The position numbers and the translations under genes are program-made. Positions 588-23,976 of a stretch of 64,000 nucleotides of DNA are shown here, piece by piece. Origin of the DNA: Candidatus Adlerbacteria bacterium (GTDB lineage Bacteria; Patescibacteriota; Minisyncoccia; Phycocordibacterales; SBAW01); NCBI GenBank assembly GCA_028286685.1, contig JAQBRA010000002.1, forward strand, positions 129,073 through 193,072, in the 5' to 3' direction. The stretch's first letter is position 1; each line of letters begins with the position of its first letter. Below the pieces are notes generated by a model. That model was given only the letters and a program-made list of their open reading frames with translations, was not told the DNA's origin and did no database searches.

Positions 588-799
588 TTGTACGAACTTA
601 TGCAGAGTAGCCCATTTCCGGCGTTTTTTCAAACCGGCCCAGCGCTACAGAAGAAACACAGACTTCAGCAAACCTTAATCTTATTCCCGTATTCTGCGTG
701 AGTGCATCAGAAAAGCAGCAGGCGGTTACGCGGGCAAATCTGAAGGAGGCTTCAGTAAGCAGAGAAGTTAGAGGCACGTCTACTTATACACCCACACCC

Positions 800-1945
800 A
801 TGAGCAACCAAAATTCCCTTTCTATAGTTATCCCCGCCTACAATGAGGCCCGCCGCCTGCCGGCTACGCTTGCAAGCGTATATGAGTACCTGCGCTCGGG
901 TGCCTTTCCTGCGCACGAGATAATCGTCGTCGACGACGGCTCCAGCGACAAGACCGTCGAGGTGGCTGAGGAATTTGCCAACCGTCGCGATATAAAAAAT
1001 GTGCGGATAATCCGCGCGCCCCGCAACCAGGGAAAGGGCGCGGCCCTGGCCCGCGGCATACTTGCAAGCCACGGCGAGTTCGTGCTCTGCACCGACGCCG
1101 ATCTTTCCACTCCCATAGGCGAAATGGACAAGCTTCTGCGCCGAGTGCGCCGCGACGGCTTTGACGTGGCTATCGGCTCGCGCAACGTGGCAGAAAGCAT
1201 CGTCACCAAAAAGCCCTGGTACCGCTCAATACTCAGCGGCACCTCCAACCTGCTGATCCGCCTGGTCTTGGGCCTCCCCTTCCGCGACACGCAGTGCGGC
1301 TTCAAGCTCTACCGCCGCGAGGCTGCACTGTCCCTGTTTAGGAATCTCCACTTGCCGCGCTTCAGCTTTGATTTTGAGGTACTCTCCCGCGCCAAGACTA
1401 AAGGACTGCGCGTCGCCGAGGTGGGCGTGCGCTGGGAGCATTCGGACTTTACCACGGTGCGCACGCGCGATGTTTTCCAGTGCCTCGTCGATGTGTTCCG
1501 CATCCGCTTCGGCCTTACCGGAGACGCCTCAATGGCGCAGCTCGGGCGCTTTATGACGGTGGGCGTCGTCAATACCGCCATCGACGCTGGCCTATATTTC
1601 ATGCTCACCCGATTTACCGCCGCGTTTGCGGGAGACATTGTCGCGGCAAAGTTCTTCTCATTCCTGGCGGCCACCGTATCGAGCCTGCTTCTCAACCGCC
1701 GCTGGACCTTCGGCGTGCGTGCACCGCTTACATTTGCCGAGGTCGCGCGCTTTTACGCGACCGTCTCCGCCAGCATGGCGCTCAACGTGAGCCTTATGTA
1801 TATGTTCGTGCACGGTCTTGGCATCCACGACCTCCAGGCGCTCCTGCTTACCACCCTGCTTACCTTCGGGCTCAACTACACGCTGTCGCGCCTCTGGGTA
1901 TTCCCCAAGAAAGACGCCGAGCTTGCTGCGGGCATGAACCTATAA
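800..1945 (+). CDS. GT2 polyprenyl-phosphate (Dpm1/Ppm1-like) glycosyltransferase fused to a C-terminal GtrA-like membrane domain
   Basis: ORF track 698-1945. The N-terminal part (IVIPAYNEA...VVDDGSSD...DADLS...QCGFKLY) is a GT2 Dpm1-like fold and the C-terminal ~120 aa are a GtrA-type 4-TM domain. ATG at 800 is preferred; the track start at 698 is a GTG. Confidence 0.8.
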   Translation: MSNQNSLSIVIPAYNEARRLPATLASVYEYLRSGAFPAHEIIVVDDGSSDKTVEVAEEFANRRDIKNVRIIRAPRNQGKGAALARGILASHGEFVLCTDADLSTPIGEMDKLLRRVRRDGFDVAIGSRNVAESIVTKKPWYRSILSGTSNLLIRLVLGLPFRDTQCGFKLYRREAALSLFRNLHLPRFSFDFEVLSRAKTKGLRVAEVGVRWEHSDFTTVRTRDVFQCLVDVFRIRFGLTGDASMAQLGRFMTVGVVNTAIDAGLYFMLTRFTAAFAGDIVAAKFFSFLAATVSSLLLNRRWTFGVRAPLTFAEVARFYATVSASMALNVSLMYMFVHGLGIHDLQALLLTTLLTFGLNYTLSRLWVFPKKDAELAAGMNL

Positions 1946-1948
1946 CCT

Positions 1949-2473
1949 ATGAAAAAACTGCTTATACCCGTTATGTTTCTGGGCCTGCTCTTTGCCGCCA
2001 CTCCCGCGCTTGCCCAGGAGCGCGGGGAAAACCGCGGAAGCGGCTCGGTAGTGCAGTCTATTTTCGATTCACTTGAGCGCGCGCGCGAGTCGCGACAGGA
2101 GCGCGCACGCCAGGCACAAGAAGAGCAGCGGGCATCGCAACAGGAAGTTGCAGCAGACGGGCAGACTGCAACCTCTACGGCCACTTCAACTTCAACTGTG
2201 GCCGCAGCCACCACAACCGCCGCTGCCGCTCGGCCGGACGCTCCAGTTGCACAACAGCCTGCGGCCGCAGCGATCTCAGCGCTGGGCGACCAGAACGGGA
2301 CGCCGCAGGCGGGCGTCTATGAAGCAGAGGGCCTCTCTGCCGCGCAGATGCGGATACTGCTGACTGCCGCACTGGCAATGGCGGTGGGCGGATTCTTATT
2401 AGTGGAGCGCGGGACTCTCGAGCGCCTCCTTGCCGCCGGCCCTGCGCGCCGCACGCACTCCTTACGCGTATGA
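1949..2473 (+). CDS. hypothetical secreted/membrane-anchored protein with low-complexity Thr/Ala-rich segment
   Basis: ORF track. It has an N-terminal signal peptide (MKKLLIPVMFLGLLFAATPALA), a TSTATSTST/AAATTTAAAA stretch and a C-terminal hydrophobic helix. Confidence 0.6.
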   Translation: MKKLLIPVMFLGLLFAATPALAQERGENRGSGSVVQSIFDSLERARESRQERARQAQEEQRASQQEVAADGQTATSTATSTSTVAAATTTAAAARPDAPVAQQPAAAAISALGDQNGTPQAGVYEAEGLSAAQMRILLTAALAMAVGGFLLVERGTLERLLAAGPARRTHSLRV

Positions 2474-3690
2474 GATTAAAGTTTGTCGGATACCTCCTGC
2501 TCGGAGCGGCGCTGCTTGTGCTGCTTGCAGTCATATACCTAAGCTCCGACCGGAGCCGGATCCCACTCATGTTCTCCCCTACGCAAATCCTGGGAGCCAC
2601 CTGGGGACACTACAAGGAGGAGTACCTTGAGCCCGGCACCAATCGCACGCTCGACAAGCAGCGCGAGAATGTCACCACATCCGAGGGCCAAAGCTACACG
2701 ATGCTCCGGGCCGTATGGCAGGGCGACAAAGAGACCTTTGACGCATCCTGGACGTGGACCAAAGACAACCTGCTGCACGACGATGACTGGCTCTTTGCCT
2801 GGATCTTTGGCAAACGCAGCGACGGCTCTTACGGCGTCTTGGCAGAGCGCGGCGGCAATTCGACCGCAAGCGATGCAGACCAGGATATCGCGCTCGCGCT
2901 CATATTCGCCTACGCGCGCTGGCAGGACCCGGCCTACATAGGAGAGGCGCGCCGCATACTCGACGATATCTGGGAGAAAGAAGTGATCATGATACAGGGA
3001 AAGCCCTATCTCGCCGCCAATGATCTTGAGAAATTTTCCTCCTCTGAAACGGCGATCATCAACCCTTCTTATTTGGCTCCGTACGCGTACCGGATATTTG
3101 CGGTTGTTGACTCCAATCATGCCTGGGAAGGCTTGATCGACACGTCCTACGATGTTATCGGGCGATCGATCGAGCTGCCGCTTGGCGCACCGGAAAGCGC
3201 GGGGCTTGCACCGGACTGGGTGCGCATCAACAAGGCAACCGGCGAGCTTACGCCAACTGGCGGGGACTTGACCACCAACTTCGGCTACGACGCGCTGCGC
3301 ATGCCTTGGCGCCTTGCGCTCGATTACCAATGGAACAAGGAAGAACGCGCCCGCGAGACGCTCTCCCGCATGAGCTTCCTCTCGCGGCAATGGAAAGAGC
3401 GCGGCACGCTCAGCACTACCTACAGTCACGACGGCACAGTCTTGGGCGACTACGAGACCCCCGCCTTCTACGGCGGAGTTATCGGCTACTTTATAGTCGC
3501 GGACAAGGCGGCAGCGAGAAACGTCTATGAGCAGAAACTCGGAAGCCTCTACAATCCGGATACCAACGACTGGAAGCAGCGCCTTTCCTATTACGACGAT
3601 AACTGGGCCTGGTTCGGCATCGGACTCTATCACAACCTCCTCCCCAATCTTTCCGACAATTTGCCGGCAAGCGCTTTCCTGACGCCTTAA
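2470..3690 (+). CDS. glycoside hydrolase family 8 endoglucanase (BcsZ-like), N-terminally membrane anchored
   Basis: ORF track. The SEGQSYTML ... ASDADQDIALALIFA stretch matches the GH8 signature. Its start overlaps the upstream stop (ATGA). Confidence 0.85.
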   Translation: MRLKFVGYLLLGAALLVLLAVIYLSSDRSRIPLMFSPTQILGATWGHYKEEYLEPGTNRTLDKQRENVTTSEGQSYTMLRAVWQGDKETFDASWTWTKDNLLHDDDWLFAWIFGKRSDGSYGVLAERGGNSTASDADQDIALALIFAYARWQDPAYIGEARRILDDIWEKEVIMIQGKPYLAANDLEKFSSSETAIINPSYLAPYAYRIFAVVDSNHAWEGLIDTSYDVIGRSIELPLGAPESAGLAPDWVRINKATGELTPTGGDLTTNFGYDALRMPWRLALDYQWNKEERARETLSRMSFLSRQWKERGTLSTTYSHDGTVLGDYETPAFYGGVIGYFIVADKAAARNVYEQKLGSLYNPDTNDWKQRLSYYDDNWAWFGIGLYHNLLPNLSDNLPASAFLTP

Positions 3691-3737
3691 GCCGCCCTTC
3701 ATGCGCGGCCGCGTATGGTAGCGCTTGTAACCACCCT

Positions 3738-5306
3738 ATGAATAATCACGAACAACCAATTGATCTGCGCACCGCGTTTCTGAAAACCGGCTCTTCGCGC
3801 GCGCTCTTTGCGGCAAATGCGGCACTAGCCGTCCTGTACTTCTGCGTGCTCACCTTCTTCTTCAAGCACGGCAATCCCCTGCTCTGGGGCCTCCTGGTCG
3901 CGGGCGAAGTGTTCCATCTCTGGCAGGTGCTCACGTTCCTCTACACGGTCTGGGACACCGAGCACAAGGCGCGCTTCGATGCCGCACTGGTCCCCGCAGT
4001 CGACGTGTTTATCACAGTAGCCGGCGAGCCCGTTTCGGTCGTCGAAGAGACCGCGCGCGCGGCCAGGAATATGCGCTACGCGGGAGCCTTCTCTGTCCAT
4101 ATACTTAACGACGGCTATGTCGCCAAAAAGGACAACTGGCGCGAGATTGAATCCATGGCTGCGCGCGTGGGCGTGCACTGCATCACTCGTACGGTTCCTG
4201 GGGGTGCCAAGGCCGGCAACATTAACAATGCGCTCAAGCTCACCGTCGCTCCCCTGGTAGCCATATTCGACGCGGACCATGTCCCGCACGAGGATTTCCT
4301 GGAAAAGACGGTCGGGTATTTTGCTGACGAGAAAATGGGCTTCGTGCAGACGCCGCAGTTTTACAAGAATCACGGCGCCAATTACCTGGCCCAGGCATCG
4401 TGGGAGCAGCAGGAGCTTTTCTTCGGCCCCATCTGCAAGGGAAAAAATCGGCACAACGCCGCGACCATGTGCGGAACCAACATGGTTATCAGCCGCGAGG
4501 CGCTTGAGCGCGTCGGGGGCATGTCAACCGAGTCGATCGCCGAAGATTTCGTAACGGGGCTCTTCATGCACTCACTGGGATTAAAGTCGTATTACGTAGG
4601 AGAAGTCCTGGCAGAAGGCTTGGCGACCGAGGACTTCCTCTCCTACTCCAAGCAGCAATTCAGGTGGGCTCGCGGCTCGCTCGATGTTATCTTCCGCTAC
4701 AATCCGCTTTTGCGGCGCGGGCTTACGTTCGCGCAGCGCATCCAGTATCTGGCGTCGGCGAGCTTCTACCTGTCGGGCACGGTGGTATTCATCGACCTTA
4801 TGCTGCCGCTGGCGTTCCTCTATACGGGCGCGGTACCGCTTGAGATCAGCGGCATGTTCTTGGCAGCGGTATTCCTCCCCTACATGTTCCTGACGCTCTA
4901 CTGCGTGCAGCGCAGCTCCAACTTTACGTTTACGTTCGCGTCGCTGGCGCTGTCGATGAGCGCGTTTACGATCCACCTCAGCGCCCTGTGGGCCGCCATG
5001 ACGGGAAAGAAGTCGGCCTTCGTCATAACCTCCAAGGAAGCCGTGTCGGGCAACTTTATCAGGCTCGCTGCGCCGCACATAGCCTATGTCGCCATAGCGG
5101 CCTTCGGCATCTTAGTGGCGCTCAACCGCGAGGGATTTTCGGCATCGCTCGTCAACAACATAGCCTGGGTGGCGCTCAACGCCGCGGTGTTTTACCCCTA
5201 CATAAAGGCAGCTCGCGGCGACGCGCACCCGGCAGCGGCAGCCGAGCCCGGTTCTGTGCCCCTATCGTCTCTTATAAAACCTAAGCACAAAGTTCATGCG
5301 CAGTAA
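3738..5306 (+). CDS. processive beta-glycosyltransferase, cellulose-synthase-like GT2 (BcsA/CesA family catalytic core, no PilZ domain)
   Basis: ORF track. It has an N-terminal TM region, DAD in AIFDADHV, TED followed by QQFRWARG (the QxxRW motif), and several C-terminal TM helices. Confidence 0.85.
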   Translation: MNNHEQPIDLRTAFLKTGSSRALFAANAALAVLYFCVLTFFFKHGNPLLWGLLVAGEVFHLWQVLTFLYTVWDTEHKARFDAALVPAVDVFITVAGEPVSVVEETARAARNMRYAGAFSVHILNDGYVAKKDNWREIESMAARVGVHCITRTVPGGAKAGNINNALKLTVAPLVAIFDADHVPHEDFLEKTVGYFADEKMGFVQTPQFYKNHGANYLAQASWEQQELFFGPICKGKNRHNAATMCGTNMVISREALERVGGMSTESIAEDFVTGLFMHSLGLKSYYVGEVLAEGLATEDFLSYSKQQFRWARGSLDVIFRYNPLLRRGLTFAQRIQYLASASFYLSGTVVFIDLMLPLAFLYTGAVPLEISGMFLAAVFLPYMFLTLYCVQRSSNFTFTFASLALSMSAFTIHLSALWAAMTGKKSAFVITSKEAVSGNFIRLAAPHIAYVAIAAFGILVALNREGFSASLVNNIAWVALNAAVFYPYIKAARGDAHPAAAAEPGSVPLSSLIKPKHKVHAQ

Positions 5307-6819
5307 TACGGTTTTCTGGCAGCTAGGCGGGCTTATGGCGCTCGTCGCGGCACTGGCCTTTTTCTTTTTCTTCCAGCAGTCGATGCGGCTCGACGAGTCG
5401 CAGAGCCTCTGGCAGACGGGGCGCAGCGCCCCGGAGATACTGACTATCGTCGCGCAGGACGTGCACGTGCCGCTCTATCATGAGCTCCTCCATTTCTGGC
5501 GCGTCTTCGTGGGCGACAGCGTTGAGGCGAGCCGGCTCCTGTCGCTGATATTCTACATGGCGTCCATACCGGCGCTCTACTTCCTCGGCCGGATCGCCTA
5601 TGGCCGCCAAGCCGGGCTTTTTGCCGCAACGCTCCTCGCCATATCCCCGTTTATGAATTGGTACGGCAGCGAGATACGCATGTACACGCTGTTTACCTTT
5701 TTGGTGGTACTCAACCAGTACTTCTTTATCCGCATACTCAAGTCAGCCGAAGAGACGAGAGAGAGGACCGAGCGCGCGTGGGCGCTCTACGCGCTCACCG
5801 CCCTCCTGGGCATATTCACACACTACTTCTTCTTCCTAACGCTCGCGGGCCAGGCGCTCTTTTTCGTCCTGCGCCGCGGGCTCTTTCCCCAAGGATCGTT
5901 CAAGAAATTCTTCGGAATCCTGCTCGTACTTGCGGTCATGTTCGCGCCATGGGTGTGGTGGGTCTTCCATCAGGGTCAGGCGAACCAGGCCTCGCCGGTG
6001 CTCCAGAGCCCCACCTCCATCAACTTCTTTAGCGCATTCTCGCAGTTTATCTTCGGATTCCAGACAGACCATCTCAACACCATCGTGCTGTCCCTATGGC
6101 CCATTACGGTGCTTTTGGGCTTCTTGGCGCTGCGCAGAACCCGCGCGCTTCAGCCGGAAACTTTATATTTCATGATCAGCGTATTTCTGTCGATGGCGCT
6201 GGCATTCATCGTAAGCGTGCTCATCGAGCCCGTGTTCGTCTCGCGCTACCTCATCTTTACCGTACCGTCGCTCTATCTCCTTTTGGGGGCACTCATATCG
6301 GCTTACCCGCCGCGCATGGCTTCCTTTGCCCGCTACGCAATAATCGGCCTCATGCTTGCAGGCCTCGCTATCGAAATGTTCAGCAATTCCACCCCGGTCA
6401 AGGAAAACTACCGCGAGGCGGCGCAGTTTCTGACTGAGAATGCGGCGGCGCAGGATATCGTGATACTCTCGGCACCCTTTACCGTCTATCCGGTCGAGTA
6501 CTACTACCGCGGGCCGGCTCCCATTGCTACGCTCCCCAATTGGGACCGCTACGCGTTCGGACCGCTGCCCGCCTATTCCGCAGATGCAATGCCCCAGGAA
6601 GTTACGGATACGACAAAAAATTACCAATACGCATGGCTCCTGCTTTCCTACGACCAGGGCTACGAGGAAGACATGCGTATTTATTTCGATGAGCATTTCG
6701 AGCGCGTCGACATGCGCGAATTCTCTCCGGGACTCGCGCTCTGGGTCTACAAGATACGCTACGACACGCCGCTTGCCGGCGAGGACTTCGTCCCCGGCAC
6801 CACTACCCCAGAGCAATAG
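5296..6819 (+). CDS. GT-C fold glycosyltransferase, GT39/PMT_2 (ArnT/protein-O-mannosyltransferase-like) family
   Basis: ORF track. It is polytopic, with a DE motif in the first loop (RLDESQSLW) and the typical PMT_2 N-terminal ~250 aa. It overlaps the upstream gene by 11 nt. Confidence 0.75.
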   Translation: MRSNTVFWQLGGLMALVAALAFFFFFQQSMRLDESQSLWQTGRSAPEILTIVAQDVHVPLYHELLHFWRVFVGDSVEASRLLSLIFYMASIPALYFLGRIAYGRQAGLFAATLLAISPFMNWYGSEIRMYTLFTFLVVLNQYFFIRILKSAEETRERTERAWALYALTALLGIFTHYFFFLTLAGQALFFVLRRGLFPQGSFKKFFGILLVLAVMFAPWVWWVFHQGQANQASPVLQSPTSINFFSAFSQFIFGFQTDHLNTIVLSLWPITVLLGFLALRRTRALQPETLYFMISVFLSMALAFIVSVLIEPVFVSRYLIFTVPSLYLLLGALISAYPPRMASFARYAIIGLMLAGLAIEMFSNSTPVKENYREAAQFLTENAAAQDIVILSAPFTVYPVEYYYRGPAPIATLPNWDRYAFGPLPAYSADAMPQEVTDTTKNYQYAWLLLSYDQGYEEDMRIYFDEHFERVDMREFSPGLALWVYKIRYDTPLAGEDFVPGTTTPEQ

Positions 6820-6921
6820 GGGTAAGCAAAAACCTTTCAGAAAATAGTCTGGCCCGAGAGCGCTCCAAGCGCGATACGGGAGATCCGAGGACTTTTTCTG
6901 AAAGGTTTTTGTGGAGCTTGT

Positions 6922-8412
6922 TTACTTAACTAGAGAGAGCGCGTACTCGGGCCACCAGGTGCCGGCCGAGGGGCCGCCGTTGCATGCGCCGTCGGATTCG
7001 CCCGGAGTCTTTACCCAGAGATAGGCGTCTATGAGGCTCTGGCCGGTAGCTGCAGACGGACTCTGGCCCGTCTTGCGTCCCCACGGATTGCACCATTCGC
7101 TATTGCCGCCGTTGCCGTTGCGGGCGGTATCGATGACGAAGTGCTTGCCGCCGAGCGCTTGGGACACCTTCGTGCCGTAAGCGGACTCGTCCGATGTCGT
7201 ATTGAAGTTGGACACATTGAGCGAGAAGCCGTCGGCCTTCTGTATGCCCGCCTTCTCTAGCTGCGCAGCCATATCCTTGGCGTCGATCCAGCCCGAGTGG
7301 CCGGCATCGATGTACACTTTTGTATTGCTGTTGCTCTTGAGTATGGAGACTGCCGCGGCGAGCATGTCGGCGCGCTCTCGCTGGCCCGCGCCAGAGAGGC
7401 ACGCATTGCCCGCGAGCGCATCAGGCTCGAGTATGACGACTGCCGAGGCCGAGCCAATGCCGCGCGCAAACGCGCCGATCCATTTCGTATAGGCATCCTT
7501 GCTGGAAGATCCTCCCGCAGAATAACCGCCACAGTCGCGGCCTGGAATATTGTAGGCGACTAGGACCGGCGCAGCGCCTTCCTTTTTTGCCGCATTTACC
7601 ACCTGGGCCGCATCGCTCTGCACATCCTGATTCCAGCCGCCAAACCAGGAAGCAGTCGGCTGCGCGGCCAGATAGCTCATTTTCCTGGCATCATCCGGGC
7701 GATTCTGGCTCCACGAGGCTGCCTGTGCTTTTGCAGAAGAATTTGCATTGACGTAGAAGGTCAGGTCTTTGAGCGGATTTTTGCTTACGACCGGCACGGT
7801 AACCTGTTGGGCCGGCTGCGAAGGCATCGGCTGAGACTGCCCTGCGCTCGAGGTTGCCGCTTGCACCGCGCTGGACGTCGCCACAACAGCTGCCACAGGC
7901 GGCACCGGCACGGATGCTTGCCCGTTCTCTACAAAGATATCGACGCTCTTCTGCCCGATGATCGTATCGTTTTGCCGCGCAATGAAGTTTATTTTGTAGG
8001 GACCCGCTCCCTTCCAGTTCCAGCCGGACACGTCCACACCAGACTCCTTGTGGGGCGCATCAGTGTAGCTGTTGTCCATCCAATTCCATGAGCCGCCGTC
8101 CACCTGCCAGAACATCTCATAGGTACCGGGGTCGACGCCGTCTAGAGCGGCCTTAAACGGCTGGGAGCCGCTGAGGCGCGCGTCGTTCTTGGGCCACCAG
8201 GCACTGACGCCGGAGCTTGCCACCGCGGCCTGCGAAACGCTGAGCGATACATTAATTGGCAGCAGGGTGATATTAGTCAGTATGACACCGAGGAATACCG
8301 CCTTGAAGAATCCATAGCGGCGCGCACGCAAGCGGGATGCCGCAGCGGTTGCCGTGCTGATAATTTTATTATTAAGAGCTTTAAGAGAACGTATTTCTTT
8401 TTCTACTTTCAC
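6922..8412 (-). CDS. glycoside hydrolase family 6 (cellulase/cellobiohydrolase-like) with N-terminal beta-sandwich/linker region
   Basis: ORF track. The C-terminal ~300 aa carry GH6 features (VLVAYNIPGRDCGG, ILEPDALAGN, WVKTPGESDG). An N-terminal signal anchor is present. Confidence 0.8.
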   Translation of the reverse strand: MKVEKEIRSLKALNNKIISTATAAASRLRARRYGFFKAVFLGVILTNITLLPINVSLSVSQAAVASSGVSAWWPKNDARLSGSQPFKAALDGVDPGTYEMFWQVDGGSWNWMDNSYTDAPHKESGVDVSGWNWKGAGPYKINFIARQNDTIIGQKSVDIFVENGQASVPVPPVAAVVATSSAVQAATSSAGQSQPMPSQPAQQVTVPVVSKNPLKDLTFYVNANSSAKAQAASWSQNRPDDARKMSYLAAQPTASWFGGWNQDVQSDAAQVVNAAKKEGAAPVLVAYNIPGRDCGGYSAGGSSSKDAYTKWIGAFARGIGSASAVVILEPDALAGNACLSGAGQRERADMLAAAVSILKSNSNTKVYIDAGHSGWIDAKDMAAQLEKAGIQKADGFSLNVSNFNTTSDESAYGTKVSQALGGKHFVIDTARNGNGGNSEWCNPWGRKTGQSPSAATGQSLIDAYLWVKTPGESDGACNGGPSAGTWWPEYALSLVK

Positions 8413-13012: not shown

Positions 13013-15642
<2,630 letters not shown>

Positions 15643-15648
15643 AAGGTA

Positions 15649-16218
15649 TTATTGCCAGTCGAAGATATTTTCGCGGACGGTTATGACGCGCGTCACGCCC
15701 GACTGGGCGCGCCAGGACACCGCAACCGTGAGCACCGCCTCCCCTGCAGACGCCGAAGCGATGATGATCGTGCGCACGAAGCGCTGCGGAGTAACCGGAT
15801 CGGAGCTGCTATAGGTAAAGTATTTCTGGCCGCCGCCGCCATCGTGCTTGGCCAGGGTCGGACAGCCGCCCGAGGAAACTGCCGGGCATGCAACTATGAC
15901 GTTGGTCGAGGGATCTATGTAGCAGCCAGTGGAACCTGTACAGGCGGTCAAATCCTTAGTCTGCGCAGTCCCGTCGCCGGAGAGCCAATTGGAGCTGCCG
16001 CCAGCAAGCTTGTTGGTGTCGCGCACAAACCGCACGTACTCGACTCCGTCTTGGGCCAGGTAAAACGCCACCATCTGGTCGCGTGCCACCAGAACGGAGC
16101 TGAGTCCTTTTGCCGCAATGGTAAGCGGGCCCGCAATGGCGCTCGTTAAGAGCAGCACTGCCACCAGGGTCTCGATGAGCGTAAAGCCGCGGACTATGTC
16201 TTTCATTTTATTGATCAT
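15649..16218 (-). CDS. type IV pilus minor pilin (prepilin-type cleavage/methylation N-terminus)
   Basis: ORF track. Sequence RGFTLIETLVAVLLL. Confidence 0.8.
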   Translation of the reverse strand: MINKMKDIVRGFTLIETLVAVLLLTSAIAGPLTIAAKGLSSVLVARDQMVAFYLAQDGVEYVRFVRDTNKLAGGSSNWLSGDGTAQTKDLTACTGSTGCYIDPSTNVIVACPAVSSGGCPTLAKHDGGGGQKYFTYSSSDPVTPQRFVRTIIIASASAGEAVLTVAVSWRAQSGVTRVITVRENIFDWQ

Positions 16219-16786
16219 ACAGTCGCTGGGTTACGGACGTCTGGAGATCGAAGACGGAATTCTGCGAAACGCTCACCGGCACGGTGCCCGACAGCAGTAT
16301 CACTACGTGCGGCTGCAGCCCGACAGATTCCGCGCCCGAGACATAGAACTGCAAATTGGTAATGGTAACCTCGGTTGCGGTAACGGCCGCATAGGCCGCG
16401 CCGTTTTTCGATACCAGGACGGCGGTGCCTGCGGGGTCGCACGTAGATCCGGCCCCGCGGCAATACTTAATGGTCTGATTGTCGGACGACAGGAAGGCTA
16501 CCGAGGTAGCGGGGATGCTGCTGCAGTCGCGCGGCACGGTAACCGTGCCCGAAGATACATCGCAGTGGTAGTTGACGCCCGTGCGCATCGAGCGCGACAT
16601 CGCATCGAGCGAGAAGTTAAGGTTGTTTATGACCGACTTTAAGGTCTGCGCCTTGCGGTCGCTCTCAGACATTGCCAACAGCGCGCCGAGCGCAATGACC
16701 ATAACGGTCGAGAATATCGCCACCGAGACCATCATCTCAATGAGGGTAAATCCGGCTTTGCGGTTCTTTTTGGGGAAAGTAGTCAT
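16208..16786 (-). CDS. type IV pilus minor pilin (PilW/GspJ-like)
   Basis: ORF track. Sequence KAGFTLIEMMVSVAIF. Confidence 0.8.
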   Translation of the reverse strand: MTTFPKKNRKAGFTLIEMMVSVAIFSTVMVIALGALLAMSESDRKAQTLKSVINNLNFSLDAMSRSMRTGVNYHCDVSSGTVTVPRDCSSIPATSVAFLSSDNQTIKYCRGAGSTCDPAGTAVLVSKNGAAYAAVTATEVTITNLQFYVSGAESVGLQPHVVILLSGTVPVSVSQNSVFDLQTSVTQRLYDQ

Positions 16787-16787
16787 A

Positions 16788-17489
16788 TTAGCAAGAGGCA
16801 GGGTCTGCGTTGACCTTGCATACGGCGATCTGGCCCGCGCTGCTTACCTTTACCGTGCGCACATCGGTGCCGGCCGCGGCCTTTAGCTGTACGTAGGCAT
16901 ACGAGTAGACCGGCACGGCATTGACCGCGCATGCGCCCGGATTGCGGCTGGTAGCAAAGCACCCGTCCGGATTGGGGCGCCGGAAGAATATCGTAAGCGA
17001 GGTGATGGTCGTGCCGCCTGACTGGCACTCGTCATTGCCGCTGGCGATATTATGGGCGCAGAAGTCGCTGATGTAGTAGTCGGTGCCGCGGCCGTTGCCC
17101 AGCGTAAAGCGCGGGAGCTCCTCGCCGGCGTCGTACTGCCCGTTGCCTGCACTTGCGGGTATAGTGTCCGCAAATAAAAGGTAGTGGCTGGAGTCCACCA
17201 GCCCACTGTTGCCAAACTGGACGCCGAAGCCCTGGGAGAACTTGCCGGTACCAACACCGCTCTCGCGGACCGAGACGCCGTAGAGCTGCGCTTGGCGCAC
17301 CGAGAGCGCGGAGGAGTAGGCAAGGCTGCGCAGGAGCGTGGAGCTGTTGAAGCCCTGCTGGCGGAAGAGTACGAAGCCGGTAATGAGCACGATAATGAGC
17401 GACACTACCAAAAGCTCGATCAGCGTAAAGCCCCTCGCCGGGCGCGAATGCCTAAAGTAGGAGCGTAAGCGATTGAAAGAAGTCTGCAT
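16788..17489 (-). CDS. type IV pilus minor pilin (FimT/GspH-like)
   Basis: ORF track. Sequence [16 protein letters not shown] after a 20-aa leader. Confidence 0.8.
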   Translation of the reverse strand: MQTSFNRLRSYFRHSRPARGFTLIELLVVSLIIVLITGFVLFRQQGFNSSTLLRSLAYSSALSVRQAQLYGVSVRESGVGTGKFSQGFGVQFGNSGLVDSSHYLLFADTIPASAGNGQYDAGEELPRFTLGNGRGTDYYISDFCAHNIASGNDECQSGGTTITSLTIFFRRPNPDGCFATSRNPGACAVNAVPVYSYAYVQLKAAAGTDVRTVKVSSAGQIAVCKVNADPASC

Positions 17490-18237
17490 GGAAAAAGTAA
17501 GCGGTGGCGGCGCCGAGTATCAGGAACGGCGCAAAGGGCACCTCGCTACTCATTGTATATCTATTTTTAAACACTAAGAGCAGGGCTATTCCTATAAGCG
17601 CTCCGGACCAAAACGCTATGAGGAGCGCCGTAAAGCCGGCCGTCAGCCCCAAAAGCCAGCCTAAAGAAAGCTCTAATATGCCGTCGCCCCACCCCATCCA
17701 TCGGCCGCGGGATACAAGGGATATAAGAAGGAGCGGCCCGGCCAGTATCGGACCGACAAGCAGGCCCCAGTAGCCCATACTCTCCCCTACTATTGCTGAC
17801 TGGCTGAAAAAGCCGAGAAGCGCCCCGCCCAAGGCGAGCGCCATAAGCACAAGCGTCGCCGACCAGGGAATAATTTGGTGGCGCAGGTCGTAGACTACGA
17901 TAAACAAAAGCACGAGCCATACCCCAAACCAGTACAAAAACCACAAAGGCTCCGGATTTTGGAGATACGCAAAGACTGCGAGCACTGCAGCCATAGCCTC
18001 TACCGCCGGGTACTGCCAGGAGATGCGGGCGCGGCAGTAGCGGCACTTGCCGCGCAGAAAGAGATAGGACAGGAGCGGAACAAGATCGAGGCTTGAAAGT
18101 TCGTGGCCACAGCGCATGCAGGCACTCCTGCCTTTAAGGACCGAGCGCCCGGTATTGAAGCGGAATAGGAGCGCGTTAAGAAAGCTCCCCAGTATGAGCC
18201 CCAAGCCCGCCACGAAAATATATACTAGCAGCGGCAT
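17452..18237 (-). CDS. pilD: prepilin peptidase (A24 family)
   Basis: ORF track. It has an N-terminal CxxC...CxxC motif, polytopic membrane topology and a conserved MGWGDG motif. Confidence 0.9.
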   Translation of the reverse strand: MPLLVYIFVAGLGLILGSFLNALLFRFNTGRSVLKGRSACMRCGHELSSLDLVPLLSYLFLRGKCRYCRARISWQYPAVEAMAAVLAVFAYLQNPEPLWFLYWFGVWLVLLFIVVYDLRHQIIPWSATLVLMALALGGALLGFFSQSAIVGESMGYWGLLVGPILAGPLLLISLVSRGRWMGWGDGILELSLGWLLGLTAGFTALLIAFWSGALIGIALLLVFKNRYTMSSEVPFAPFLILGAATAYFFHADFFQSLTLLL

Positions 18238-18854
18238 TACGGAGCGACGTCGTAGCAGGCATCAGTGGTCGCAGCGGTTGTGCCAGTGCAGGCAGTTGCA
18301 TTGCCGTTAAAGGTAGCGGCACCCGGAACACTGAGCGTACAAGCAGTGTAGCCGGTATATACGTAGGTGCTCCCGGTGTCAGCATCAACATCTTGAGTAA
18401 GGCCGCCGGCACCCGTAGTATCTTCCATAGCTGCACCCAAGTGATAGGTTACCGGGGGATATGTTGTAGCATTACAGTTTGTGCTGCTTCCAGCTGTATA
18501 AGCAATGTATTTGTAACAACCAGTCCCGGAAGAGCTGGCACAGGCAGCGCTCGAGTTTGGATCGCTGGGGACAACCGGAAGATAAGCGCCAGCCAAACCT
18601 GTATCAGGTGCAGATTTACCACTTATGGTGCTAGCCGCGTAAATATTTTTAGGGTACACACTGTTGTCGTTGTAATAGAGAGACAAGGCAAGCTGAATCG
18701 ATTTTATATCAGCCTGCCGTTTAGCATCTCGTGATTTAGATTTAGCACCCGACAAAGAGACCATGACAATGCTCGCTAAAATTCCAATGATTGCGATAAC
18801 GACCAGGAGCTCGATGAGGGTAAAGCCGCGTCTTGAGGTAAATTCTTTATACAT
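18237..18854 (-). CDS. type IV pilin (PilA-like major pilin candidate)
   Basis: ORF track. It has the canonical [22 protein letters not shown]-terminus and a Cys/Thr-rich C-terminal region. Confidence 0.85.
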   Translation of the reverse strand: MYKEFTSRRGFTLIELLVVIAIIGILASIVMVSLSGAKSKSRDAKRQADIKSIQLALSLYYNDNSVYPKNIYAASTISGKSAPDTGLAGAYLPVVPSDPNSSAACASSSGTGCYKYIAYTAGSSTNCNATTYPPVTYHLGAAMEDTTGAGGLTQDVDADTGSTYVYTGYTACTLSVPGAATFNGNATACTGTTAATTDACYDVAP

Positions 18855-18883
18855 AACCCTAACTATAACGTTATAAATATAAC

Positions 18884-21175
18884 CTACTGTGGATTAGTAG
18901 GGGCTTCAACTTCTGGCTCCACTTCTGGAGCTTCCTGTTCCAGTGTTTTTGGATTAGAGAATTCAGCAGAGTTGAGAGTTGCACCAGTTTTAAAAGCACG
19001 ATCAATCTTCCCGTCTCCCTCATTATCAACTTGAACAAAAACCGAATCGCTTCTTCCTTCCGAAAGACCCTGTGCGTCAATTGAATAAATATGCGCTTCC
19101 CCTATCTTAGTAGGTATATTTCTTGCATCGAATTGCATAAGTTTACCTCCTACTCTTATGGCAATATCGAGCCCATAGGTACCCTTATCAGTACCAACCA
19201 CCTTATAGAAATAATTATCTTCAGCCGCCAGTACTTTTACCAACTTTTGTTCTTTATTAACAATCGCCAAAGGAAAGGTATTTTTGATCTCTCCGTGAAT
19301 TACCCCCGCCACTTCTCCCTTCTGACTATAAATACTTAGTTCGGCCGGGCTGTGTAATTGTGCACACGTCGTTGTCGAAACTTCTGTTGCATGCATTTTA
19401 TCAATCAAGGGAATTATGTCGCTTGTGGTTGCAGATGGATAGTAGGTATCTATATCATCAAGGACATCTGCAATAAGACCGATATAGGGACAATTATCTC
19501 CGTTATAGCTTTCTGTTGTCAAAATAATCTTCTTTTCCAAGGGACTATAAGTAGTACCAAAAACTGTAGATGTCGAATTTATGTAACTAAACAAGTTAAA
19601 CCTATCCGACAATAAACCCATTCCATCTTTGATATTTGCATAGAAAGACTGCTCAGTGTTTGAATATTGTTTATATGTAGGGTTACTTGAATTTCCCCCA
19701 TAAGGCTTATAGTGTTTTGCTGCAGAATGGTGAGTGCCAGCATTGGTGTAACAGTTTATATAGTCATCTGTATTTATACTTGCGCAAGGCGGAATGGTAA
19801 CAAAACTCCCATATCCCCTATTGTCATAAGTAGAGTGGGGGTTACTAGGTTCATAGAACCAGGCATTAAATGTAATCTGCATGGCGCCGTGTCCATAGTC
19901 AGGACTTACATTCTCATTATTAAACCCAAATGTAGCGCCTCCATTCTCATGTGCAGCAATGCCCCAAACTACCTTCTTCTCATAGTCACCGTCTTTTAAA
20001 TCTGAAATGTTGTTTGAGCCATTATCGCTATCGTATAGAGAATTATTAGAATTTGCGTTATTGTAATAGTGATCTATCGCTTTCAAAATAAGAGCTGGCC
20101 TTGATGAAGTTGCTATATAGTTTGTAGAACTTGCCTCGAGAGCAGCCTGATTTATTGAATCATACGGCAAGTAACTTACTGTCCCTGAGGCATTTGCCCC
20201 TACCATCCAACCTTCAATACCATCAGTCGGATCTGATACTTCATACCAGCGATATCCGTCAGCCACTACATAACCATCTGTCTGGTTTGTCGTACTAGAT
20301 ACATACACTATCCAATCCTCAGGTAGTATTTTTAAGATATCAGCGGACGTGTCAGGATCTTCTCTCAAAGCCAAAGTTCCACTTGGAGTGTTCGATATTT
20401 TTGAATAAAAAGGATTTGATAAGTCAGCATCAAAAATATTATCAACTCTGTATATCGGAGCGCTTCCTGAACTACCGAAAACCAGTCCGGTTAGACCGTT
20501 TTCGACGTAGTGGGAATCAGTTTCACAATTAGGATGAGCGTATATTTGTTCAGGAGAACCGGAGTGATCAACGTCTAAAGTAAAGCTACACAACCCCCCG
20601 TCTGAGATGTCATACGAGAGAGTTAACGTATGCCACGTAGAAGTAGAAATATTTTCAAATATAGGCTGGAAGTTAGGGTTGAGTATGTTATAGCCAGTTA
20701 CACCCCGACCTGTAAAAAAAAGTCCCATATTACCGGAATACACACCCGGATTATTCATTGCAACAACAAAATCACCGTCAAACGGAGGATTAGAAGAGAC
20801 ATAGAAATCTATATTCCACACACCCTTTGTTGTAGTTGCTCCATCGTTTGAAATAGTTGCATAACTACTAGAATTAAACTCCATACATTTTCCCGATACG
20901 CAACCTGATGAAATAACCGAAGGATTCGGTCCTGTTGGATCAGAAATATACGCAACCCAGTTACCTTGTCCTTTTATATTTCCATTTGTATATAGGTCGA
21001 AGTCATCATTGAAAGGCGCTTCTGCCTTTGCTAGGTACGGCACGGCCAGAAATAAGACTGAGACACAGGCGGCAAGTATCGCCAATGCCATACTTAATTT
21101 AGAGTTTTGGGAACAGGATAAGGAGTTTGGCAATAGAGACATTGCCCCAACTTTAGCATGCAGTTGTTTTAACAA
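18884..21175 (-). CDS. large secreted Asn/Ser/Thr-rich protein with SH3b-like and SLT-like (lytic transglycosylase-like) motifs; compositionally foreign (AT-rich)
   Basis: ORF track, 763 aa with a signal peptide. A GYRWYEV...GWMVG segment is SH3b-like. GIAAHENGG...VSPDYGHGAMQI resembles the SLT motif I/II block (AIAxQES...SPxGAxGLMQ). Gene GC is ~40% against ~62% in the flanks. Confidence 0.75.
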   Translation of the reverse strand: MLKQLHAKVGAMSLLPNSLSCSQNSKLSMALAILAACVSVLFLAVPYLAKAEAPFNDDFDLYTNGNIKGQGNWVAYISDPTGPNPSVISSGCVSGKCMEFNSSSYATISNDGATTTKGVWNIDFYVSSNPPFDGDFVVAMNNPGVYSGNMGLFFTGRGVTGYNILNPNFQPIFENISTSTWHTLTLSYDISDGGLCSFTLDVDHSGSPEQIYAHPNCETDSHYVENGLTGLVFGSSGSAPIYRVDNIFDADLSNPFYSKISNTPSGTLALREDPDTSADILKILPEDWIVYVSSTTNQTDGYVVADGYRWYEVSDPTDGIEGWMVGANASGTVSYLPYDSINQAALEASSTNYIATSSRPALILKAIDHYYNNANSNNSLYDSDNGSNNISDLKDGDYEKKVVWGIAAHENGGATFGFNNENVSPDYGHGAMQITFNAWFYEPSNPHSTYDNRGYGSFVTIPPCASINTDDYINCYTNAGTHHSAAKHYKPYGGNSSNPTYKQYSNTEQSFYANIKDGMGLLSDRFNLFSYINSTSTVFGTTYSPLEKKIILTTESYNGDNCPYIGLIADVLDDIDTYYPSATTSDIIPLIDKMHATEVSTTTCAQLHSPAELSIYSQKGEVAGVIHGEIKNTFPLAIVNKEQKLVKVLAAEDNYFYKVVGTDKGTYGLDIAIRVGGKLMQFDARNIPTKIGEAHIYSIDAQGLSEGRSDSVFVQVDNEGDGKIDRAFKTGATLNSAEFSNPKTLEQEAPEVEPEVEAPTNPQ

Positions 21176-21206
21176 GCGTCACTATCCACACCTCCTCTAA
21201 ATCTAA

Positions 21207-22778
21207 CTACTTTATCCCCCGCATGACCCAGTAGGGCTCTGCCAGGCTTTCGGAACCGTACACACCCACATCCCAGGCCGTATCGTCTATGACTAATTCG
21301 TAGCGGTATGACGGATTAAACATAACAGGAGAGCCGTTAAAGTTCTGCCCATTCGCCGGAGGATTACTGAAGTTGGCAGTCCAATACTTGTTGCCGGTCC
21401 TCTGAGAAGCTTCTTCGGCAATAATGTCAGTGCGGCCTAAGAGTGCGGGACGCTTTATAGCTAAGTCTGGGCGACTCTCCTGAGTTGCTGCTTCAACCCA
21501 ATCAGGGCAAGCATCCCCTGCTTCGGTATAGCACCTAATCATGATAAACCAGATGTGCTGAGGAGTGACCAGATTTGTTTCGTCCCTTGCGATAGTTATA
21601 GACTGTAGCGCTCCCCCGCCGAGCGTTGAGCCCTCTCCCAGATCGATTATTGCCTGGTTAGTTTCTTGGCCCAGCTTGTTGATATCATGCCCGTTAACGA
21701 AGCTGAGTTTATCGTCGTCATTGCAGTAAAGCCAGGAGCTCCCGCACAAGAAGGACTCGTCATTCTGCTCCTTCATAGTGTAGATAACAGGCTCTGGGGT
21801 AGTTATTTCCTCCTGATAAACGCCAACTGCAAAAGTGCTCGAGGCCGTATTGCCTGCCGCGTCGCTTGCGGTACAGGTAACGGTAGTGGTACCCAAGACG
21901 AAGGCTGAACCGGATGCAGGCTCGCAAGCTACAACAACTTCACTATCGCGATTGTCGGTAGCCGTAGGGAGCTCGTAGGAAATCTCTATGCTCTCTTGGG
22001 TAGTGGTGGCTACAACATCGGCATGCGGGGCGATAACCGGGGCCGTGGTGTCTGGAATCGCCGTGGCAGTAACGACTACCTTAAACGAGCTGGTAGCCGT
22101 ATTGTTTGCAGCGTCCTTGGCGGTGCAGGCAACCGTGGTAGTACCCAGGGTAAAAGTCGAGCCGGATGCGGGCAGACAGGCTACCGTAACAGTCGCGTCC
22201 ACATTGTCCGTAGCAGTAGGGAGCGCGTAAGAAACCGGGGTGCTCGTTCCTGTAGTAGCGGCTGCAACGTTAGCATGCACTGCAATGACCGGGGCTACGG
22301 TGTCCGAAACTGGAGCCGTAGGCTTGATTACTGTAACCGAGGAACCGTCGGTCGGCGGGCAGAAGCCGATAAACGGCAGGCGCACCGAGGAGCATAAGGA
22401 AATGTTGCCGGCCGTGTCCACCAAGGTCAGGAGGTAGGCAACCTTGCCGGTCGGGTCTTTGGATCCGACGGTGTAGGAAGCGTCCCAGCTGTTGCCGGAG
22501 GAGTTGCGCGCCTTAACAAAAATAGCATGGGTATTTACCAGGACTATCGGAGTAACTTTCTCGTTTGCGGTAAAAGTAATCGTAACCTTGTCCCCTGCCT
22601 TAGCCTGGGCAGGATTAGCGTTATTGGAGCCTATGTGGACCGAGACGACAGACGGAGCAGTCTTATCTTTAGGAGTGGACGCTTCAGCTAATACGGGGCT
22701 AAAAAGACCAAGAACCAGCACAAGGGCGGTTAGGGTTTTCATATGCCAAGAGAATAGCATGATCCAATAAAAGCGCAA
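21207..22778 (-). CDS. secreted protein with two tandem HYR (hyalin-repeat, Ig-like) domains
   Basis: ORF track. Two ~80-aa repeats (aa ~158-238 and ~244-320) each carry Y(A/E)LPTATDN(V/R)D...C(L/E)PASGS.F.LGTTTV.CTA.DAAxNTA. The likely start is an internal Met (MKTLTALVLVLG). Confidence 0.75.
   Translation of the reverse strand: MRFYWIMLFSWHMKTLTALVLVLGLFSPVLAEASTPKDKTAPSVVSVHIGSNNANPAQAKAGDKVTITFTANEKVTPIVLVNTHAIFVKARNSSGNSWDASYTVGSKDPTGKVAYLLTLVDTAGNISLCSSVRLPFIGFCPPTDGSSVTVIKPTAPVSDTVAPVIAVHANVAAATTGTSTPVSYALPTATDNVDATVTVACLPASGSTFTLGTTTVACTAKDAANNTATSSFKVVVTATAIPDTTAPVIAPHADVVATTTQESIEISYELPTATDNRDSEVVVACEPASGSAFVLGTTTVTCTASDAAGNTASSTFAVGVYQEEITTPEPVIYTMKEQNDESFLCGSSWLYCNDDDKLSFVNGHDINKLGQETNQAIIDLGEGSTLGGGALQSITIARDETNLVTPQHIWFIMIRCYTEAGDACPDWVEAATQESRPDLAIKRPALLGRTDIIAEEASQRTGNKYWTANFSNPPANGQNFNGSPVMFNPSYRYELVIDDTAWDVGVYGSESLAEPYWVMRGIK
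21819..22307. repeat. tandem ~243-bp coding repeat (two HYR units)
   Basis: The two protein repeats map to adjacent ~243-nt DNA units. The six-frame track shows mirrored ORF patterns twice (21988- and 22240-). Confidence 0.7.
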
Positions 22779-22801
22779 GAGTCGTCAAGAGGCTCCCAAA
22801 A

Positions 22802-22826
22802 CAAAACCCGGAATATCCGGGGTTTT
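22802..22826. terminator. terminator hairpin aaaacccggAATATccgggtttt 3' of pilin paralog 1
   Basis: An inverted repeat with flanking A/T runs lies just downstream of the minus-strand stop at 22846. Confidence 0.65.
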
Positions 22827-22845
22827 GTCCGCTATGCATAGAGAA

Positions 22846-23322
22846 TTAATTACAGCCTGCGCCGGTAAACGGAGTTGAGGTTGCACTGCTGACGCAGACC
22901 TCGCCAGCGCCCAAGGTGCCCGCACCAGACTCCAAGTAAGTCCTGATCAGCCAATTGTTGAAATTAGCCGCACCGGTGCCCGCCGTGTTGGATACGGTGT
23001 AGTTGCAGACAGAGACAGGGCTTGCGATACAAGTGCCCGTGCCGGAAGGATCGTTAAATGCGGAGAAGTCCGGAGAGGTGCAGGTAGAAGCAACGCTGTA
23101 CCCTGCAGTCGTGCAAGTAGAGAAAGCTGTAGAAGTGTCAACGCTATTGCTCAGGTTGATAACCCGAACCATCTGGCCGAGCTCGGCTACGCGCTTGGCG
23201 TCGCGGCCCTTGCCGCGTGCGCCGTTAAGGGAAACAAGCACTATAGAGGCCAAAATACCGATAATTGCTATAACGACCAAAAGCTCGATGAGGGTAAAGC
23301 CTCGGGGTTGCTTGTTTTGCAT
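22846..23322 (-). CDS. type IV pilin paralog 1
   Basis: ORF track. The sequence is [44 protein letters not shown]..., whose first ~40 aa are identical to paralog 2. Confidence 0.85.
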
Positions 23323-23380
23323 AGCACCAGTATATCCCGCCCCTCCCCCGCTTAGGCAGCGTGTGGGGATAAGGTGCTAA

Positions 23381-23857: not shown

Positions 23858-23928
23858 AGCACCAGTATATCCCGCCCCTCCCCCGCCTGGCCATCCAGTG
23901 GGGACAAACTGAAGATGCTAAGGAAAAC

Positions 23929-23956: not shown

Positions 23957-23976
23957 GTTACTAACAGAAAGTTAGA

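Follow-up and report, generated by a model that had tools for sequence, protein, structure and literature searches.

A PilZ-less BcsA-like synthase linked to an ArnT-like GT-C enzyme and two endoglucanase-family hydrolases in a putative envelope-polysaccharide locus of Candidatus Adlerbacteria

Genes for a cellulose-synthase-like enzyme, a lipid-linked sugar synthase, a membrane glycosyltransferase of the GT-C fold, and two hydrolases of cellulase families lie together at positions 698/800 to 8412 of a 64,000-nucleotide (nt) stretch of DNA (the window) from a metagenome-assembled genome of Candidatus Adlerbacteria, a monoderm, small-genome bacterium of the Parcubacteria group (Patescibacteria, or candidate phyla radiation, CPR). 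The question raised by this locus is whether its genes act on one surface polymer or belong to separate systems that lie side by side. Judging from gene families and arrangement, we lean towards the view that the region forms a single envelope-polysaccharide biosynthesis unit of six genes. On balance, we also favor reading this unit as a synthase-dependent system for the export of a beta-1,4-glycan, with a probably cellulose-like product that is modified by the GT-C enzyme and trimmed by two endoglucanases. The features of the region, with the evidence for each (Pfam E values where a family is named), are as follows.

800-1945 (the open reading frame opens with GTG at 698), plus strand: family 2 glycosyltransferase (GT2) of the dolichol-phosphate-mannose synthase (DPMS) type with a GtrA/DPMS membrane domain (Glycos_transf_2, 1.2e-35; GtrA_DPMS_TM, 3.9e-21)
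1949-2473, plus strand: small single-pass membrane protein (hydropathy and a positional hidden Markov model; no Pfam family)
2470-3690, plus strand: anchored, BcsZ-like endoglucanase of glycoside hydrolase family 8 (GH8) (Glyco_hydro_8, 3.3e-42)
3738-5306, plus strand: BcsA-like processive GT2 without PilZ (Glyco_tranf_2_3, 6e-26; Cellulose_synt, 1.1e-08)
5296-6819, plus strand: ArnT-like GT-C enzyme (PMT_2, 1.4e-10)
6922-8412, minus strand: predicted GH6 endoglucanase, anchored or secreted (Glyco_hydro_6, 5.5e-66)
7930-8208, minus strand: Trp-rich beta-sandwich domain within the GH6 protein (predicted structure, predicted local distance difference test [pLDDT] score above 90)

All open reading frames (ORFs) and domains listed by the initial annotation, which had been made from the sequence without database searches, were found at their coordinates with strong Pfam scores. 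Its limits for the unit were also correct, the flanks being occupied by tRNA genes, a DUF975 protein, GatA, and LigA. The five genes of its list stand; the ORF at 1949-2473, which it had overlooked, belongs to the unit as well. The plus-strand genes are separated, in order, by a 3-nt gap, a 4-nt overlap, a 47-nt gap, and an 11-nt overlap, the last of these being the overlap of the GT-C start with the synthase stop. The GH6 gene on the minus strand is convergent with this five-gene operon. Hydropathy analysis indicated a lone N-terminal anchor on both the GH8 and the GH6 protein and multiple helices in the synthase and the GT-C enzyme. The synthase and the GH6 protein correspond to the NCBI proteins JWL87_156 and JWL87_158, respectively, with 100% identity each. 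The GC content of the module (0.58-0.60) was similar to that of the remainder of the window, and a scan for sigma-70 promoters and intrinsic terminators gave no signal above chance. No BcsB-like gene was identified by Pfam among the six assigned ORFs of the unit, and no GlxA-type radical copper oxidase domain was present in the ORFs of 698-8412 or its flanks.

To what kind of polymer synthase does the ORF at 3738-5306 correspond? The top NCBIfam profile was CelA/BcsA (1.1e-83, spanning profile positions 92-552 of 714), with NodC (4e-11) and PgaC (1e-10) far lower, and the only solved structures that matched were BcsA chains (1e-52). The enzyme thus falls with CelA/BcsA and not with NodC or the chitin or hyaluronan synthases, a placement that the initial annotation had named as one that would count against its call. 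With scores of 281.6 bits for TIGR03030 (equivalog cut-off, 699.1) and 213.4 bits for PRK11498 (cut-off, 992), it would be classed as cellulose-synthase-like and not as a BcsA equivalog by the NCBIfam cut-offs. The description of a BcsA-like GT2 with a QxxRW motif and no PilZ domain was accurate, except that the motif aligned with TED of BcsA is A268-E269-D270, of which the glutamate and the aspartate are invariant among 28 homologues. The FDADH, KAGNINN, VQTPQ, MCGTN, and QQFRWARG motifs, which align to Escherichia coli BcsA, are all kept and are invariant or nearly so. The gating loop FxITxK reads F428-V-I-T431-S-K433, in which the phenylalanine and the lysine are invariant and the threonine is nearly invariant. 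Two transmembrane helices precede the catalytic region, the alignment starting at residue 48, which corresponds to BcsA residue 230. Pfam returned no PilZ match in the synthase, and the chain stops about 50 residues past the last helix. The protein is therefore predicted to lack cyclic di-GMP (c-di-GMP) gating and may represent a minimal BcsA-type processive GT2, acting as both synthase and translocase. It shares 60-82% identity with its closest Parcubacteria homologues.

A scan of species-representative genomes revealed relatives of the synthase in at least 580 stretches, from Parcubacteria, Saccharimonadia, Gracilibacteria, Doudnabacteria, WWE3, Levyibacteria, Dojkabacteria, Blackburnbacteria, and Actinomycetota. 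Eighty loci were fetched for neighborhood analysis, with family counts taken over 81 loci and gene adjacency counted on the evaluable ones. GH8, synthase, and GT-C genes were adjacent in all 34 evaluable CPR loci, in the order GH8-synthase-GT-C (31 loci) or GH8-GT-C-synthase (3 loci). They were also adjacent in 5 of 5 loci of Geodermatophilales/Quadrisphaera (GH8-synthase-GT-C) and in 15 of the 18 loci of a deep Actinomycetota clade, where the order is GT-C-synthase-GH8. These three genes are thus a fixed triad despite three gene orders. The earlier comparison of the GH8-synthase pair with bcs operons holds, as the two genes adjoin in 54 of 57 evaluable loci. Starting the search in reverse from three GT-C homologues gave the same picture: each lies directly after a synthase gene, with GH8, a small ORF, and the GT2/GtrA gene upstream. 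Where genes had been called in other Adlerbacteria and in close relatives, the GT-C gene overlaps that of the synthase by 17-20 nt or lies at most a few bases from it. Beyond the triad, the recurrent families were the DPMS-type GT2 (36 loci) and GH6 (25 loci), plus antisense shadow ORFs. A DPMS-type GT2 gene was found no more than 8 kb away in 15 of 34 CPR, 5 of 5 Geodermatophilales, and 8 of 18 deep Actinomycetota loci. No further family occurred in more than 16 of the 81 loci, hence no BcsB-, BcsC-, or BcsG-like partner is conserved.

The gene that follows the synthase had been assigned to the PMT/ArnT family of GT-C enzymes, and both sequence and predicted structure bear this out. In Pfam it matched the catch-all family PMT_2 (PF13231, 42 bits) and neither the true PMT domain (PF02366) nor PMT_4TMC; a sequence-profile search against solved structures, including solved Pmt proteins, returned nothing significant. 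The AlphaFold model (pLDDT, 86.7; predicted template modeling [TM] score, 0.86) predicts a multi-pass GT-C fold followed by a C-terminal extracytoplasmic alpha/beta domain, which is conserved and aromatic-rich and has no Pfam match at an E value of ≤10. With this model, Foldseek ranked ArnT first (5ezm; E value, 5e-8; TM score, 0.61), followed by STT3, ALG9/12, Pmt4, and AftD. The loop-1 residues L32-D33-E34, P59 of the DVH(V/P)PL motif, E126/R128, and R317 are kept in 66 to 67 of 67 sequences, distant Actinomycetota included; L32-D33-E34 itself is found in 66 and Y318 in 62 of them. Because these motifs are conserved and the fold is ArnT-like, we predict that the GT-C enzyme is an active transferase with a polyprenyl-phosphate-sugar as its donor.

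Such a donor could be supplied by the first gene of the operon. Its best solved match was the Pyrococcus Dol-P-Man synthase (5mlz, 9.5e-29), aligned over residues 40-398 and both domains, followed by ArnC and GtrB. The initial call of a Dpm1/Ppm1-like GT2 carrying a GtrA-type domain therefore stands, but the fusion is nothing special, since it is the one-chain architecture of the Pyrococcus enzyme, whose membrane domain is itself covered by Pfam GtrA_DPMS_TM. The protein is predicted to be a polyprenyl-phosphate-hexose synthase of this one-chain DPMS type. The ATG at 800 is a more likely start than the GTG at 698, as the homologues called at this position have lengths of 375-389 residues. Every NCBIfam equivalog score of this protein was far under its cut-off, and the transferred sugar is therefore not readable from the sequence; mannose is plausible given that a Dol-P-Man synthase is its best match among solved structures. 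In one related locus (L086:89-1293) the donor synthase is split into a 253-residue GT2 gene and a 143-residue GtrA_DPMS_TM gene on the strand opposite to the module, as in systems with separate GtrB and GtrA genes.

The overlooked ORF at 1949-2473, whose stop codon overlaps the GH8 start (ATGA), encodes a signal peptide followed by an Ala/Thr/Gln-rich spacer, a conserved Y-x4-L-S motif, a single transmembrane helix, and a basic tail, with hydrophobic peaks at residues 4-22 and 134-152. A Pfam search returned no family for it. Its last 43 residues share 42% identity (E value, 3e-07) with a 72-residue ORF that another Adlerbacteria genome has in this position. Run over 18,819 ORF pieces drawn from all loci, a hidden Markov model of nine seed sequences gave 17-18 matches at an E value of ≤0.1, all of them ending between -36 and +10 nt from a GH8 start. 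The protein belongs, as an extended local version, to a family of small single-pass membrane proteins whose position is conserved, and its added signal peptide would fit a topology with the N terminus outside and the C terminus inside.

The GH8 protein was described as membrane-anchored and BcsZ-like, and it is: the Pfam match (145.2 bits; cut-off, 24) is accompanied by an N-terminal hydrophobic anchor at residues 6-24. The NCBIfam BcsZ profile matched at 1.7e-38 (132 bits, under the equivalog cut-off of 299), and its solved relatives include 1cem, annotated as cellulase CelA, and other chains annotated as glucanase or endoglucanase. The SEGQ acid motif, the ASDADxDIA signature (here ASDADQDIA), and the YDALR base motif are all legible.

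The GH6 protein comprises an N-terminal helix or transmembrane segment, a beta-sandwich, a disordered Ser/Thr/Pro/Ala linker (residues 166-209), and a catalytic domain at about 6925-7785. The family assignment, which had been made subject to E-value thresholds, passes them with 223.9 bits (Pfam cut-off, 27), and the signatures VAYNIPGRDCGG and ILEPDAL are intact, catalytic aspartate included. Mycobacterium tuberculosis Cel6 (1uoz) matches the domain at 1.4e-66. In structural comparison, the model scored a TM of 0.86-0.90 against endoglucanases (M. tuberculosis Cel6 and Thermobifida fusca Cel6A) versus about 0.53 against cellobiohydrolases, which identifies the protein as a putative endoglucanase; the cellulose-active endoglucanases nearest to it include a structure solved with thiocellopentaose. 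A GH6 enzyme had been considered unusual for a small-genome bacterium. Among the best 120 matches, each named protein came from a Parcubacteria-group lineage, and a GH6 homologue holds the same position in 12 of 34 CPR and 3 of 5 Geodermatophilales loci. The family is thus common in Parcubacteria and a recurrent member of the module, both there and in Geodermatophilus. The suggestion that GH6 attacks an exogenous or host beta-glucan likewise gives way, as the enzyme recurs within a synthase module and mirrors CslZ of Streptomyces, a GH6 protein that is divergently transcribed from cslA-glxA (PMC9040799). A recent horizontal gain of GH6 was also considered and rejected: the GC content is unremarkable, and the module lies upstream of GatA and LigA in another Adlerbacteria genome too.

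The beta-sandwich of the GH6 protein (residues ~68-162) is all-beta and rich in tryptophan; W72, W73, W102, W131, W133, Y98, and Y139 are invariant. It had no Pfam match at an E value of ≤10, and sequence searches of the PDB and Foldseek yielded only non-significant Ig-like matches. The domain (~95 residues) recurs, at 54% identity (E value, 2e-30), as the C terminus of enzymes of the beta-mannanase family GH113, which flank the module in seven related loci (L086:6640-8403, L087:7992-10361, L007, L009, L010, L028, and L043). As it is shuffled between hydrolases of this locus type, it is a candidate carbohydrate-binding or docking module for the polymer.

The distribution of the module also bears on its history. 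Within Adlerbacteria it is inherited in place: GatA and LigA lie downstream of it in another Adlerbacteria genome as well, with GatC between them there. A neighbor-joining tree of the synthase, built without support values, separates an actinobacterial clade from a CPR clade and places Geodermatophilus, Klenkia, and Quadrisphaera inside the latter, beside Saccharimonadales. Geodermatophilus proteins are 62-65% (synthase) and 44-47% (GT-C) identical to those CPR sequences, versus 39-41% and ~29%, respectively, to other Actinomycetota. This nesting, together with the contrast in identity, suggests transfer of the whole module between CPR and Geodermatophilales lineages. The synthase of the window is 50-53% identical to those of Geodermatophilus, Klenkia, and Quadrisphaera, actinobacteria that include culturable soil organisms.

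Several individual loci deserve mention. In an actinomycete, the synthase and GT-C enzyme share a single 1447-residue ORF (L073:9182-13525), and in two high-GC actinobacterial loci the synthase and GH8 share single ORFs of ~880 residues (L066:9905-12568 and L074:9959-12604). These long ORFs, which may be true fusions or chance in-frame read-through in DNA of ~70% GC, are weak hints at most. Geodermatophilus sp. LHW52908 (L056) carries a second PMT_2 GT-C gene (2570-4138) and a second GH8 gene (4215-5549, minus strand) just upstream of the core module, a duplication of this pair. Near the module in Adlerbacteria-type loci, a protein of ~400 residues with no Pfam match was found (L085:7295-8494, L003:13031-14080, and L005:6092-7159; 45-63% identity), lying between GT-C and GH6 in two of the three. 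Finally, eight records titled Gammaproteobacteria, Acidobacteriaceae, or Chloroflexi (L015, L019, L035, L038, L044, L045, L048, and L052) carry CPR-type modules. Their contigs have a GC content of 0.37-0.53, and the synthase tree groups them within the CPR clade; these bins have probably been mislabeled or contaminated.

How might the six products work together? In the mechanism that we propose, the PilZ-less BcsA-type GT2 would polymerize a beta-1,4-linked hexose from a nucleotide sugar and thread the chain across the membrane, the polymer most probably being a cellulose-like glucan. Beta-1,4 chemistry is favored because two beta-1,4-acting glucanase families, GH8 and GH6, accompany the synthase; the placing of GH6 beside a PilZ-less synthase is shared with cslA-glxA-cslZ of Streptomyces. 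The first gene would make a polyprenyl-phosphate-hexose, possibly of mannose, at the cytoplasmic face, and its GtrA/DPMS membrane domain would help to present this donor at the outer face. There, the ArnT-like GT-C enzyme, translationally coupled to the synthase, would use the lipid-linked sugar. The linkage of the two genes suggests that its acceptor is the emerging glycan or the immediate envelope acceptor of that glycan. The anchored GH8 and the GH6 enzyme may trim or release the polymer or clear its path, as has been proposed for BcsZ and CslZ, and the small single-pass protein may be an accessory subunit. The gene families, the intact catalytic motifs, the membrane anchors, the operon structure, and the co-location across phyla are observed; for the identity of the polymer, the donor sugar, the GT-C acceptor, and a physical complex of these proteins, we infer what the genes suggest.

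The unit resembles several known systems. With Bcs operons of types I to III (BcsA-BcsB-BcsZ-BcsC) it shares a processive family 2 synthase with all BcsA motifs, apart from the T-to-A change in TED, a BcsZ-like GH8 endoglucanase in the same operon, and synthase-dependent export. Unlike those operons, it has no PilZ domain and no BcsB, BcsC, BcsG, BcsE, or BcsF; two N-terminal helices replace the longer N-terminal region of BcsA, the gene after that of the synthase encodes a GT-C enzyme with intact catalytic motifs, the further components are a lipid-sugar synthase, a GH6 enzyme, and a small single-pass protein, and the host is a monoderm CPR bacterium. The cslA-glxA-cslZ cluster of Streptomyces (with lpmP) is similar in combining a PilZ-less cellulose-synthase-like protein with a GH6 gene alongside on the opposite strand in a monoderm, and in a proposed role in depositing a cell-surface beta-glycan, not in nutrition. 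However, the GlxA copper oxidase and the lytic polysaccharide monooxygenase are missing from the present unit, the Streptomyces cluster is not accompanied by a GT-C, GH8, or DPMS-type gene, and the likeness drawn is one of gene arrangement. The combination of a GT2 lipid-sugar synthase, a GtrA-type domain, and an extracytoplasmic GT-C enzyme is also found in GtrA/GtrB/GtrC, ArnC/ArnT, CsbB/GtcA/YfhO, GacI/GacL, and PpgS/Rv3779. These three-component systems modify O-antigen, lipid A, teichoic acids, rhamnan, or arabinogalactan, which are made by other routes, whereas the partner here would be the product of a BcsA-type synthase, an acceptor that we infer from gene linkage only. Actinobacterial Ppm1 and Pmt (GT39) likewise combine a donor synthase of the DPMS family with a GT-C partner bearing a loop-1 Asp-Glu; the GT-C enzyme described here differs in lacking the PMT (PF02366) and PMT_4TMC domains, in being nearer to ArnT, and in being tied to a polysaccharide synthase. 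As PilZ, BcsB, GlxA, and true PMT domains are absent and the synthase does not reach the equivalog cut-offs, the unit is a full member of none of the Bcs, Streptomyces Csl, or Gtr/Arn-type systems. No description of the synthase-GT-C arrangement was found in full-text searches of open-access papers, and the full text of a 2021 review of Bcs systems nowhere mentions a GT-C enzyme.

Other explanations of the locus have to be weighed against a single glycan-export unit. The initial annotation had likened the Ppm1-like and GT-C genes to a protein-O-mannosylation module, and two independent systems might lie side by side, namely such a Ppm1/PMT-type pair and a separate bcs-like synthase-GH8 pair; the targets of the former would be the GH6 linker, the small Thr/Ala-rich protein, and other secreted proteins. 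O-mannosylation occurs on the linkers of actinobacterial cellulases. The GT-C enzyme does have the PMT-style loop-1 Asp-Glu and DVHxPL motifs, the GT2 is closest among solved structures to a Dol-P-Man synthase, the GH6 linker consists of Ser, Thr, Pro, and Ala, and the spacer encoded by the ORF at 1949-2473 is rich in Thr, Ser, and Ala. However, the GT-C gene adjoins the synthase in essentially every relative, including many loci without GH6 and without a long spacer protein, and the two genes overlap or nearly abut in Adlerbacteria and their close relatives. PF02366 and PMT_4TMC are absent, no solved Pmt protein matches in sequence, and ArnT ranks above Pmt4 in structure. Since the GT-C gene is linked to the synthase whichever of the two the search starts from, a free-standing protein-O-mannosylation pair is hard to reconcile with these data, and we regard two independent systems as unlikely. 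We give an equally small chance to a GT-C enzyme that acts mainly as a co-synthase, standing in for BcsB by stabilizing the minimal six-helix synthase and guiding the chain, with a single transfer that primes the glucan or tethers it to a lipid or wall acceptor in place of decoration along its length. In bcs operons, bcsB lies directly after the synthase gene, which is where the GT-C gene is found here. No BcsB-like family is conserved near these loci, the synthase is devoid of PilZ and of the N-terminal region preceding BcsA residue 230, the extracytoplasmic domain of the GT-C enzyme is conserved and aromatic-rich, and one actinomycete has both enzymes in a single 1447-residue ORF. That ORF may be a chance read-through, though (70% GC), as the two genes are not in frame in its sister locus L058, and strictly conserved catalytic residues argue against a purely structural role.

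The nature of the polymer and the direction of the pathway bring in two further alternatives, together with most of the points that weigh against a modified, cellulose-like export product. The synthase lies under the NCBIfam CelA equivalog cut-off and is only cellulose-synthase-like by that measure, and curdlan, mixed-linkage glucan, and mannan synthases have these same motifs. Seven related loci carry GH113 enzymes that share the beta-sandwich of the GH6 protein, so mannose might be part of the backbone. Only about half of the loci have the DPMS-type gene within 8 kb, protein O-glycosylation would plausibly target the Ser/Thr-rich linkers of the GH6 and small proteins, and no characterized precedent was found in the open-access literature for a GT-C enzyme glycosylating a synthase-made glucan. 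A polymer other than cellulose, whether beta-1,4-mannan, glucomannan, or a mixed-linkage or beta-1,3 glucan, would accommodate the GH113 enzymes and the score of the synthase. Beta-1,4-mannan and glucomannan are made by GT2 enzymes in plants (CSLA), and GH8 as defined in CAZy also holds chitosanases, xylanases, and licheninases. Against such a polymer, the best profile and structure matches of the synthase are all BcsA, the hydrolase linked to it universally is a BcsZ-like GH8, the GH6 domain is nearest to cellulose-active endoglucanases, among them the one solved with thiocellopentaose, and GH113 is absent from this window; we consider a non-cellulose product doubtful, with a modest chance of being correct. 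That the locus is instead catabolic, with GH8 and GH6 degrading a plant, algal, or host beta-glucan next to unrelated glycosyltransferases, would suit these two classical cellulase families. It is nevertheless highly improbable, as the hydrolases are syntenic with the synthase across phyla, sugar transporters or downstream catabolic genes are not conserved nearby, and GH8 is membrane-anchored and its gene translationally coupled within a biosynthetic operon. A synthase-dependent export system for a modified beta-1,4-glycan remains the reading to which we incline.

Other parts of the window hold features of separate interest. A type IV pilus cluster at 15000-32000 encodes PilC, PilT-like and PilB ATPases, PilM, the prepilin peptidase PilD (17452-18237), and a pilin with an N-methylation motif (18237-18854). 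A stretch of low GC content (0.45) at 18-22 kb encodes a 763-residue protein with no Pfam match and a 523-residue HYR-domain protein, both of which are possibly variable pilus-associated adhesins. ARAGORN predicted a tRNA-Ile with anticodon TAT at 48650-48722; such a tRNA is not common among bacteria, which for the most part decode AUA by means of a CAT tRNA modified with lysidine. A transfer-messenger RNA gene (Rfam, 95 bits) lies at 52739-53116, with the predicted tag peptide AKTVASPYFSANQFAFAYAKA.

What would such a unit mean for the organisms that carry it? As a tentative possibility that goes beyond the locus itself, CPR bacteria and some Actinomycetota may possess a cellulose-synthase type that has not been classified, in which a minimal, c-di-GMP-independent BcsA and an ArnT-like GT-C enzyme form an obligate pair that makes a glycosylated (branched) or covalently tethered beta-1,4-glycan, as a core component of the cell envelope or as an attachment matrix, in episymbiotic ultrasmall bacteria, the module having been exchanged between Saccharimonadia-type CPR and an actinobacterial host lineage (Geodermatophilales). 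Its presence in the culturable Geodermatophilus, Klenkia, and Quadrisphaera makes this hypothesis testable without CPR culture. If it is true, the pairing of BcsA, GT-C, and lipid-sugar genes would constitute a new class of cellulose operon, and glycosylation would be a new post-synthetic modification of cellulose beside the known phosphoethanolamine and acetyl groups. CPR bacteria depend on contact with host cells, and the chemistry of their cell surface is one of the most poorly understood sides of their biology. The high conservation of the synthase and its occurrence in so many stretches suggest that the polymer matters to these organisms.

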